Part shown: piece by piece, positions 111-1,824 of the stretch
Position numbering within the stretch: the stretch's first letter is position 1
Layout of the letters: each line of letters starts with the position of its first letter
NCBI GenBank assembly: GCA_000004985.1
Contig: GG739322.1
Reading direction: 5' to 3' (one strand)
DNA from: Naegleria gruberi
Taxonomy: Eukaryota
Length of the DNA stretch: 1,824 bases
Made by a program: the position numbers and the translations under genes
The notes under the pieces: generated by a model
The model's database searches: none
The model's input: only the letters and a program-made list of their open reading frames with translations
Told to the model about the DNA's origin: nothing

Positions 111-245
111 CTGTCAAATTTTACAAAAAAATTTACAATAAATTTTACAATAATTTCAATTTTCCAATTTTCCAATTATTTCCATTATTCCAAAACATAT
201 TTTCCATTATTAATTTTCCAAATTTACAAAAAAAACTCAACTCAC
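111..245 (-). other. Probable intron of the RGS gene, 135 nt, phase 1, built from AT-rich short tandem repeats.
   Basis: The minus-strand donor GTGAGTT sits at 245-239. A candidate acceptor aatttgacAG ends at 111 and is preceded by a T-rich tract (tttttttgtaaaatttgacag). The interval is about 20% GC, against about 35% in the flanks, and consists of tandem motifs (aattttacaat, ttttccaatt x2, ttccattatt x2). If this region is read as coding it gives only a low-complexity tail (ELSFFCKFGKLIMENMFWNNGNNWKIGKLKLL). Confidence 0.4.
119..235. repeat. AT-rich low-complexity region of short tandem repeats, bounded by direct repeats of (a)atttacaaaaaaa at 119-131 and 222-234.
   Basis: Repeated motifs are visible directly: aaatttacaat / aaattttacaat, ttttccaatt twice in tandem, ttccattatt twice, and the flanking ttttacaaaaaaa / atttacaaaaaaa copies. 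Confidence 0.6.
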
Positions 246-810
246 CATCATCATCTTTCTTATCTCCCAACATTTCAAAAATTGTTTCATTCTTTTTAAA
301 TTCCTTCATGATAAATTTTTTAAATTCTTTCGATCTGACAAATCTTGGAAAATTATCTTGTTTCAATTCTGTAAAAATTACATCTTGAGCATTGGCAAAT
401 AAATCTGAAGGACATGTCAATAATTCCAAATTTGGCAGGTTTTGATTCTTTTCCAAGATTTGAGCATGTTGTTTTAGAATTTCATTTCTGATAGCCATTG
501 ACATGTTTAATTCATGTTTTGAGTTGACAACAATAAATTGATTGATAATGTCAGCTGCCAATTCTAAACGATTCTTGTCTAATCTTGTTTTTTGATAGTT
601 TTCGACCATTTCGTAGAACATGAAAGGTTCTTCATTTAAACAAACTTTCTTTAAATATTTACGAAAGGTATCTCTTGCTGGAGAATAATCGAATATTGCT
701 TCTATACGAAACTTGTATTCGGATAAGAGAGTTTCTATTCTATCGGAAGATGATTGTTTGGATGAACTTCCTCTAGGCGTAGAAACTGTCGAATGTTCGT
801 CGTTTAGCAT
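246..810 (-). CDS. RGS (regulator of G-protein signalling) domain protein, first coding exon. It contains the ATG and the complete RGS domain at roughly 309-738. If the GTGAGT donor at 240-245 is not used, the ORF instead runs on to the TAA at 145-147.
   Basis: A 221-codon minus-strand ORF whose ATG (808-810) follows an in-frame TAA two codons upstream. The translation carries RGS-box hallmarks: IFDYSPARDTFRKYLKKVCLNEEPFMFYEMVENYQK matches the conserved F..FL..E.SEEN..FW.A.E.YKK region, AADIINQFIVVNSKHELNMSMAIRNEI matches the A.eIY..Fi...ap.EvNld..tRe region, and AQDVIFTELKQDNFPRFVRSKEFKKFI matches Aq..If.lMekDsYpRFlkS..Y..l. The N-terminus is Ser-rich (STVSTPRGSSSKQSSS). On the minus strand the sequence reads GATGATGATG|GTGAGTTGAG at 255-236, a consensus nematode 5' splice donor. 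Confidence 0.75.
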
Positions 811-1088: not shown

Positions 1089-1114
1089 TACAGCACGTTT
1101 ACTTCAAGTTTGAC
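1089..1114. repeat. Left terminal inverted repeat of the MITE, including the TA target-site duplication.
   Basis: Its reverse complement matches 1462-1487 at 25 of 26 positions. TA is followed by a CAG terminus. Confidence 0.7.
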
Positions 1115-1461
1115 AAGATTTGGGGAAATTAAAATTGTTTTTTTTAAAATTTAAAGTATTTCATCTTTCAATTTTGATTTGGCAAGTAAACTCAACTTCA
1201 TTTGAAAAGAATCTGTAACGATAATATTTTATTCAACAAAATGCTAATTTCTCGATGGAATTAAGGTAGTTTTGAAATCTGACTTCAAATTATGAATCCT
1301 CGCATTGACATACCCCTTGGGGTGGCAGCATTCTCAAAAATATGTAGAAATGAGTAAGAACGAGTGGTTAGGTGTTGTTCAATTGAAATGCTTATTTTGG
1401 ATTTGACAGCAGAAGAACAACAAAATTTTTTCTAAACAATTTATTTTCTTTCAAAAAACGC

Positions 1462-1487
1462 GTCAAATTTGAAGTAAACGTGCTGTA
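1462..1487. repeat. Right terminal inverted repeat of the MITE, including the TA target-site duplication.
   Basis: It matches the reverse complement of 1089-1114 at 25 of 26 positions. It ends ...CTG followed by TA. Confidence 0.7.
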
Positions 1488-1679: not shown

Positions 1680-1824
1680 ATGAAATTACTTTACACCTTG
1701 ACATTCCTCGTGATTTTAGCATGTGGTATTCTTGCTTTTGATCAAGAAACCTATCAACCACTTTCTGAAACAGCTGTCAGAGATCATTTCCTTGATTTTA
1801 CTCGTAAATTCCAAAGATTTTACA
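1680..1824 (+). CDS. N-terminal 48 codons of a secreted protein with a cleavable signal peptide. It is partial and continues beyond the window. It may be a cathepsin-L-type (I29 propeptide) precursor, but that is unproven.
   Basis: The start context is acaAAAAAAAATG. The translation is MKLLYTLTFLVILACGILAFDQETYQPLSETAVRDHFLDFTRKFQRFY. That is one basic residue and then about 16 hydrophobic residues, ending in a small-residue cleavage motif (ILA|FD), so a classic signal peptide. It stays open to the window edge. FLDFTRKFQRFY has the same spacing of aromatic and basic residues as the W..WK..H.K.Y opening of cathepsin propeptides. The ORF is absent from the supplied track only because it is shorter than the track's length cutoff and is truncated by the window. 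Confidence 0.55.
   Translation, partial: MKLLYTLTFLVILACGILAFDQETYQPLSETAVRDHFLDFTRKFQRFY

Follow-up and report, generated by a model that had tools for sequence, protein, structure and literature searches.

A TA-flanked element with near-perfect terminal inverted repeats between two divergent genes of Naegleria gruberi: a candidate non-autonomous DNA transposon of the Tc1/mariner type

Between two divergently transcribed genes of the heterolobosean amoeboflagellate Naegleria gruberi, two short sequences face each other as near-perfect inverted repeats. Are they the ends of a transposon that has inserted into the spacer, and if so, of what type, or do they belong to the host? These questions were addressed by analysing a stretch of 1,824 nucleotides, which is referred to as the window. 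The window is an entire stand-alone scaffold; both flanking genes are cut off at its ends, and their models are incomplete.

The inverted repeats lie within the 869-bp spacer (811-1679) of the gene pair. The features of the locus are listed in Table 1. Read directly, the letters at 1089-1114 are TACAGCACGTTTACTTCAAGTTTGAC, and the reverse complement of 1462-1487 is TACAGCACGTTTACTTCAAATTTGAC. The single mismatch of the repeat is T1468 opposite G1108, which corresponds to a G/A difference. The element comprises 395 bp without and 399 bp with the two TA dinucleotides, and its tips are 5'-CAG...CTG-3'. An initial annotation of this DNA had described an element with CAG/CTG ends and a TA on each side, inserted between divergent genes, and this anatomy is right. 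Recomputation gave exactly the same coordinates and confirmed that the ends, counted with the TA, are reverse complements at 25 of 26 positions. The length of about 395 bp and the lack of an ORF were borne out as well, the longest stop-free stretch being 36 codons. Likewise, the proposed distances of about 280 bp and 190 bp to the two start codons agree well with the measured values, which are 278 bp to the ATG of the RGS gene (810) and 192 bp to the ATG of the other gene (1680).

Table 1. Features of the window and their coordinates.
Feature	Position	Strand	Remarks
Putative intron of the RGS gene	111-245	-	
RGS-domain gene, first exon; ATG at 810	246..810	-	Pfam PF00615
Left TA, putative target-site duplication	1089..1090	.	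Read directly
Left terminal inverted repeat, CAGCACGTTTACTTCAAGTTTGAC, 24 nt	1091..1114	+	23/24 identical to right repeat; 25/26 with TA
AT-rich non-coding interior, 347 bp	1115..1461	.	
Right terminal inverted repeat, 24 nt; minus-strand reading CAGCACGTTTACTTCAAATTTGAC	1462..1485	-	
Right TA, putative target-site duplication	1486..1487	.	Read directly
Gene start with signal-peptide-like N-terminus, cut by scaffold end	1680..1824	+	Translation MKLLYTLTFLVILACGILAFDQ...

If one mismatch is permitted, no inverted repeat in the window is longer than the terminal pair. Under the same condition, the maximum length was 12-19 nt in 40 random sequences of matched composition, which were generated with a first-order Markov model. 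A terminal inverted repeat of 24 bp is far beyond chance. The outer 14-mer occurs in the window at the two ends only, even if three mismatches are allowed (0.09 occurrences expected). Apart from the two ends, no additional copy of the terminal motif was detected in the window; the matches inside the element were just AT-rich ones with three mismatches, which are not convincing. Beyond the 26-nt core, the similarity between the two sides is not significant: the local score of 20 compares with a shuffle mean of 16.9 and was reached or surpassed by 46 of 300 shuffles, and unrelated AT-rich control regions scored 19-28 in the same subterminal comparison. The inverted repeat is therefore strictly terminal. 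A 64-nt inverted repeat (70%) that had been returned by the repeat search was rejected, as it consists of the 26-nt core plus AT-rich background. The right terminal repeat also contains a perfect 10-bp palindrome, TCAAATTTGA, at 1463-1472, which is present with one mismatch in the left repeat. It was dismissed as an unusual feature, because the window contains five palindromes of at least 10 bp and 3.9 are expected.

An inverted repeat that exceeds chance may nevertheless be of host origin, for example a pair of inverted 24-bp protein-binding sites on either side of a bidirectional promoter region, or the result of a local inverted duplication. The location in a divergent promoter region is in line with this explanation. 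The same holds for the base composition of the element, which is the same as that of its flanks (29.8% GC compared to 30.9% and 24% in the flanking spacer) and has to be counted against a transposon, as does the fact that only one copy has been seen. Furthermore, Naegleria genomes are transposon-poor; one pipeline determined a TE content of 0.28% for N. gruberi (bioRxiv 10.64898/2026.06.24.734286). On the other hand, a 24-bp repeat that ends exactly at a TA and possesses CAG/CTG tips displays the standard signature of transposon ends, and a host repeat is also disfavoured by the lack of additional motif copies in the window. To our knowledge, there is no regulatory system that makes use of 24-bp inverted sites spaced by approximately 350 bp, which likewise speaks against a host repeat. 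Taken together, we consider a host origin unlikely.

The interior of the element is devoid of any transposase remnant, and no stretch of more than 36 codons is free of stops. Comparison of the element with Rfam yielded no family at E <= 1, and no tRNA was detected by ARAGORN. The complete element folds better than its shuffled counterparts (z = -3.4 for DNA, z = -3.8 for RNA), as a structured RNA or a small-RNA precursor would do, that is, a hairpin gene that is not mobile. However, the z values are +1.1 for the interior (1115-1461) and +1.4 for positions 1153-1423, which means that these parts fold no better than shuffled sequences. The excess stability thus originates entirely from the 26-bp terminal stem. 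Given this distribution of stability and the missing Rfam match, a hairpin gene is very improbable. For the same reason, the long hairpin that the initial annotation had predicted for a transcript is not supported, because the interior has no excess of self-complementarity. A transcript of the element would rather form a 26-bp stem that closes a large and unremarkable loop.

If the repeats are the ends of a mobile element, the immediately adjacent nucleotides should indicate its type. A TA that is flush with both ends is found in 0.36% of random flanks (P ~0.0036); since TA is self-complementary, it is not possible to tell from one copy whether the dinucleotide was duplicated or simply continues the inverted repeat. 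Two other boundaries can be drawn, each of which would suggest a mobile element with terminal inverted repeats from a different superfamily or with a different extent. If the TA is assigned to a 26-bp repeat, the flush dinucleotide is CA (1087-88 and 1488-89). This would correspond to the 2-bp duplications of ISL2EU, a member of the PHIS group whose preference for AT-rich targets would also fit (PMC4122938). But the duplication of ISL2EU is typically AT (PMC4122938), whereas it would be TA here, or CA for this alternative boundary, and any identical flush 2-mer is found in as many as ~9% of random flanks. The other option makes use of a 6-bp direct repeat, TTCATA, one copy of which abuts the left end (1085-1090), whereas the second one is located 3 bp past the right TA (1491-1496). 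With a 6-bp duplication the element would extend from 1091 to 1490, and the empty site reconstructed around this repeat is TTCATA-CAG-TTCATA. In ~5% of random flanks, a direct repeat of 6 bp or more is found at a distance of up to 8 bp from the ends. Moreover, with this boundary five bases beyond the right repeat have no partner, an uncommon situation for elements with terminal inverted repeats. The TTCATA repeat may have arisen by chance or may be a property of the target site. Among the three readings of the boundary, the TA is clearly the most difficult one to ascribe to chance, and it is flush with the perfect ends of the repeat.

The flanks were further compared with the flush duplications expected for other superfamilies, which are 8 bp for hAT, 9-10 bp for Mutator, TTAA for piggyBac-Kolobok and 3 bp (TWA) for PIF-Harbinger. 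Directly next to the CAG...CTG ends, the 3-mers are ATA (left) and TAC (right), and the corresponding 8-mers are TCTTCATA and TACAGTTC. Neither a flush direct repeat of 3, 4, 8 or 9 bp nor a TTAA is present at the ends of the element, and all direct repeats of at least 3 bp in their vicinity are offset from the ends. These findings argue against PIF/Harbinger, piggyBac/Kolobok, hAT and Mutator.

Several of these groups have been found in the genus, and the presence of DNA transposons in the host is in line with a mobile origin of the element. Kolobok (PMC9587614) and the MuDR-type element MuDRF (PMC3164196) were reported in N. gruberi. In N. lovaniensis, DNA transposons account for 0.68%, and the repeat table contains CMC-EnSpm and PiggyBac and no Tc1/mariner class (PMC6125883). 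The lack of a reported Tc1/mariner class in Naegleria favours an element of another superfamily. With Kolobok, MuDRF, CMC-EnSpm and piggyBac, the candidate would share the cut-and-paste type and the host genus. EnSpm elements generate 3-bp duplications and have CACTA ends, and this signature is absent at the ends of the element. The same is true for the TTAA duplicated by Kolobok and piggyBac and the 5'-RR...YY-3' termini of Kolobok (PMC9587614), and for the 9-bp duplications of MuDRF (PMC3164196). The repeats of N. gruberi are mostly unclassified, and young transposon insertions are methylated (PMC12344493). Considering all these signatures, another superfamily or other boundaries appear rather unlikely for the element, and the TA-flanked structure of the Tc1/mariner type is pursued further in the following.

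The ends of the autonomous transposons Tc1 and pogo follow the pattern of a TA that is directly succeeded by CAG, and CAG...CTG termini are common in many Tc1 and pogo elements. The element matches Tc1 and pogo in the TA target and the CAG tip, and its repeats of ~24 bp are comparable to their simple, short terminal repeats. Unlike these transposons, it contains no transposase gene, and the similarity of the repeats ends at the CAG. It is also reminiscent of MITEs derived from Tc1/mariner elements, such as Stowaway of plants and Submariner, which are also short, non-coding, flanked by TA on both sides, equipped with terminal inverted repeats and situated near genes. The hallmarks of MITEs are a length of 100-600 bp, terminal inverted repeats, a TA or TAA duplication, the lack of coding sequence, a relatively high copy number and a uniform length, and MITEs are commonly located in intergenic regions near genes (PMC4495683). 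With 395 bp, terminal inverted repeats and no coding capacity, the element possesses several of these hallmarks. However, copy number is part of the definition and the element is known here from one copy, so that a strict designation as MITE is premature.

Among amoebae, Submariner is the closest precedent. These TA-flanked MITEs belong to a family of Pandoravirus salinus and Acanthamoeba castellanii and have a Tc1/mariner-related partner in Acanthamoeba; their length is 243 bp compared to 395 bp here (PMC4495683). In both cases, the host is a free-living amoeba. Submariner has been shown to occur in 30 copies, with paralogous empty sites and a relative bearing a transposase (PMC4495683), whereas our element is represented by one copy that is known from its sequence. 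Moreover, the host of Submariner is an amoebozoan, and the host studied here is a heterolobosean, a group for which the searchable literature holds no report of Tc1/mariner elements. Between our element and any retrievable element, no sequence similarity was found.

The search for relatives covered metagenomic, viral, prokaryotic and plasmid collections as well as catalogued proteins. A scan with the terminal repeats produced three matches in JGI metagenome contigs, ten in IMG/VR and three in 185,579 prokaryotic genomes of GTDB. All of them were judged to be due to chance, because they stop at the 17-20-nt seed, comprise one terminus per locus and have an unrelated composition. At the protein level, a composite query made from all six frames of the element gave no match at E <= 1 among the 8,000 candidates listed. 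This query also contained the 48-residue N-terminus of the right-hand gene and the spliced junction of the RGS gene. Among the candidates listed, there was no catalogued ORF that crosses another copy of the element. No record was returned when the RGS ORF, its metagenomic relative (see below) and three small ORFs located within the element or next to it were looked up as exact proteins. In the searchable literature, the sequence itself, MITEs of Naegleria and Tc1/mariner elements of Heterolobosea are all undescribed.

The location on a stand-alone scaffold of 1,824 bp, which is very small, might also be taken as a sign of an assembly or cloning artefact. However, the element is internal and is accompanied on both sides by bona fide Naegleria gene sequence. 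In addition, a blastn search of plasmid and vector records revealed no similarity to the element, and chimeras do not typically show a clean 24-bp inverted repeat with arms separated by 347 bp. The probability of an artefact is therefore regarded as very small.

On the left-hand side, the minus-strand ORF 145-810 encodes an RGS domain (Pfam PF00615, E = 2.4e-17) and is 100% identical to the predicted N. gruberi protein XP_002668102.1 / NAEGRDRAFT_76987 (221 aa). This protein model is a plain read-through ORF across an apparent 135-nt phase-1 intron (GTGAGT...ACAG) with a GC content of 19%. Upon removal of the intron, the RGS frame continues without a stop for another 37 codons up to the end of the scaffold. 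The annotated C-terminus ...GELSFFCKFGKLIMENMFWNNGNNWKIGKLKLL therefore probably represents translated intron. Short tandem repeats crowd positions 116-193 of this putative intron: a 12-nt unit, AAATTTTACAAT, is present in 3.2 copies, an 8-nt unit, AATTTTCC, in 4.5 copies, and a 25-nt unit in 2.1 copies. Among 5.8 billion proteins, a single relative of the RGS protein was found, namely P0002 from the soil metagenome SRR3989338, which is 74% identical; no orthologue from Naegleria fowleri or N. lovaniensis surfaced in this set. P0002 is a truncated ORF of 159 residues with an almost identical RGS core and a longer, divergent N-terminus, which begins with ML like the RGS protein translated from the ATG at 810. 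Its source is probably a soil-dwelling organism closely related to N. gruberi.

On the right-hand side, the 48 residues encoded before the scaffold ends begin, as judged by inspection, with a signal-peptide-like stretch that is followed by a polar region. No Pfam family scored above the cut-off (the best was DUF6608, E = 0.034), and no homologue was found at E <= 1 among the 8,000 candidates listed. The product looks like a secreted protein, a label that is due to inspection only.

How is the element then best interpreted? The near-perfect 24-bp repeat, the CAG/CTG tips, the flush TA and the 347 non-coding base pairs in between point to a TA-targeting element of the Tc1/mariner type. Judged by sequence, a non-autonomous element of this type fits better than the signatures of the other superfamilies that were considered. 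A mobile origin of any kind, including an element of another superfamily or with other boundaries, is probable on these grounds. With moderate confidence, we propose more specifically that the element is a single, MITE-like copy of a DNA transposon of the Tc1/mariner type, which is non-autonomous and targets TA. The superfamily we infer from the structure of the ends alone, and we likewise infer rather than observe mobility, mobilisation in trans and any regulatory effect. The initial annotation had called the structure diagnostic of Tc1/mariner elements. The structure is present and fits, but "diagnostic" is too strong a term for a single copy flanked by a palindromic TA.

For a member of this superfamily, which also includes IS630, the course of the insertion would be as follows. 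A DDE/D transposase encoded elsewhere would bind to both 24-bp terminal inverted repeats and excise the element at its CAG...CTG tips. The element would then integrate at a TA dinucleotide, which would be duplicated on both sides by gap repair. The predicted pre-insertion site is ...GGATTCTTCA-TA-CAGTTCATATT..., and the junction expected at an empty site is GGATTCTTCATACAGTTCATATT. By such an event, the spacer between the two genes would have grown from ~472 bp to its present 869 bp. The insertion would have occurred in a spacer that contains promoters, and the element itself encodes nothing. Its effects on the neighbouring genes would therefore likely be passive only: upstream sequences would have been moved ~400 bp further away from one or both promoters, and an AT-rich segment would have been added.

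A more far-reaching interpretation is that the element belongs to the first Tc1/mariner-type MITE family in Heterolobosea, which would be mobilised by an unrecognised transposase or would have been acquired horizontally. This is a speculative and quite improbable scenario. By analogy with the proposal made for Submariner MITEs, giant viruses would be a possible route of horizontal arrival. If this scenario were true, the near-perfect state of the repeats would suggest that the element was active recently.

MITEs in the vicinity of genes are commonplace in eukaryotes, and current understanding is unchanged by this locus. The feature is of an ordinary kind and at most a new example in a transposon-poor genus. 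If it turned out to belong to a repeated family, a TA-targeting family would be added to the sparse catalogue of Naegleria transposons, and its insertions might serve as polymorphism markers for the distinction of strains. Finally, an insertion that nearly doubled the length of the spacer may constitute a natural experiment on promoter spacing in Naegleria, whose promoters are poorly described.
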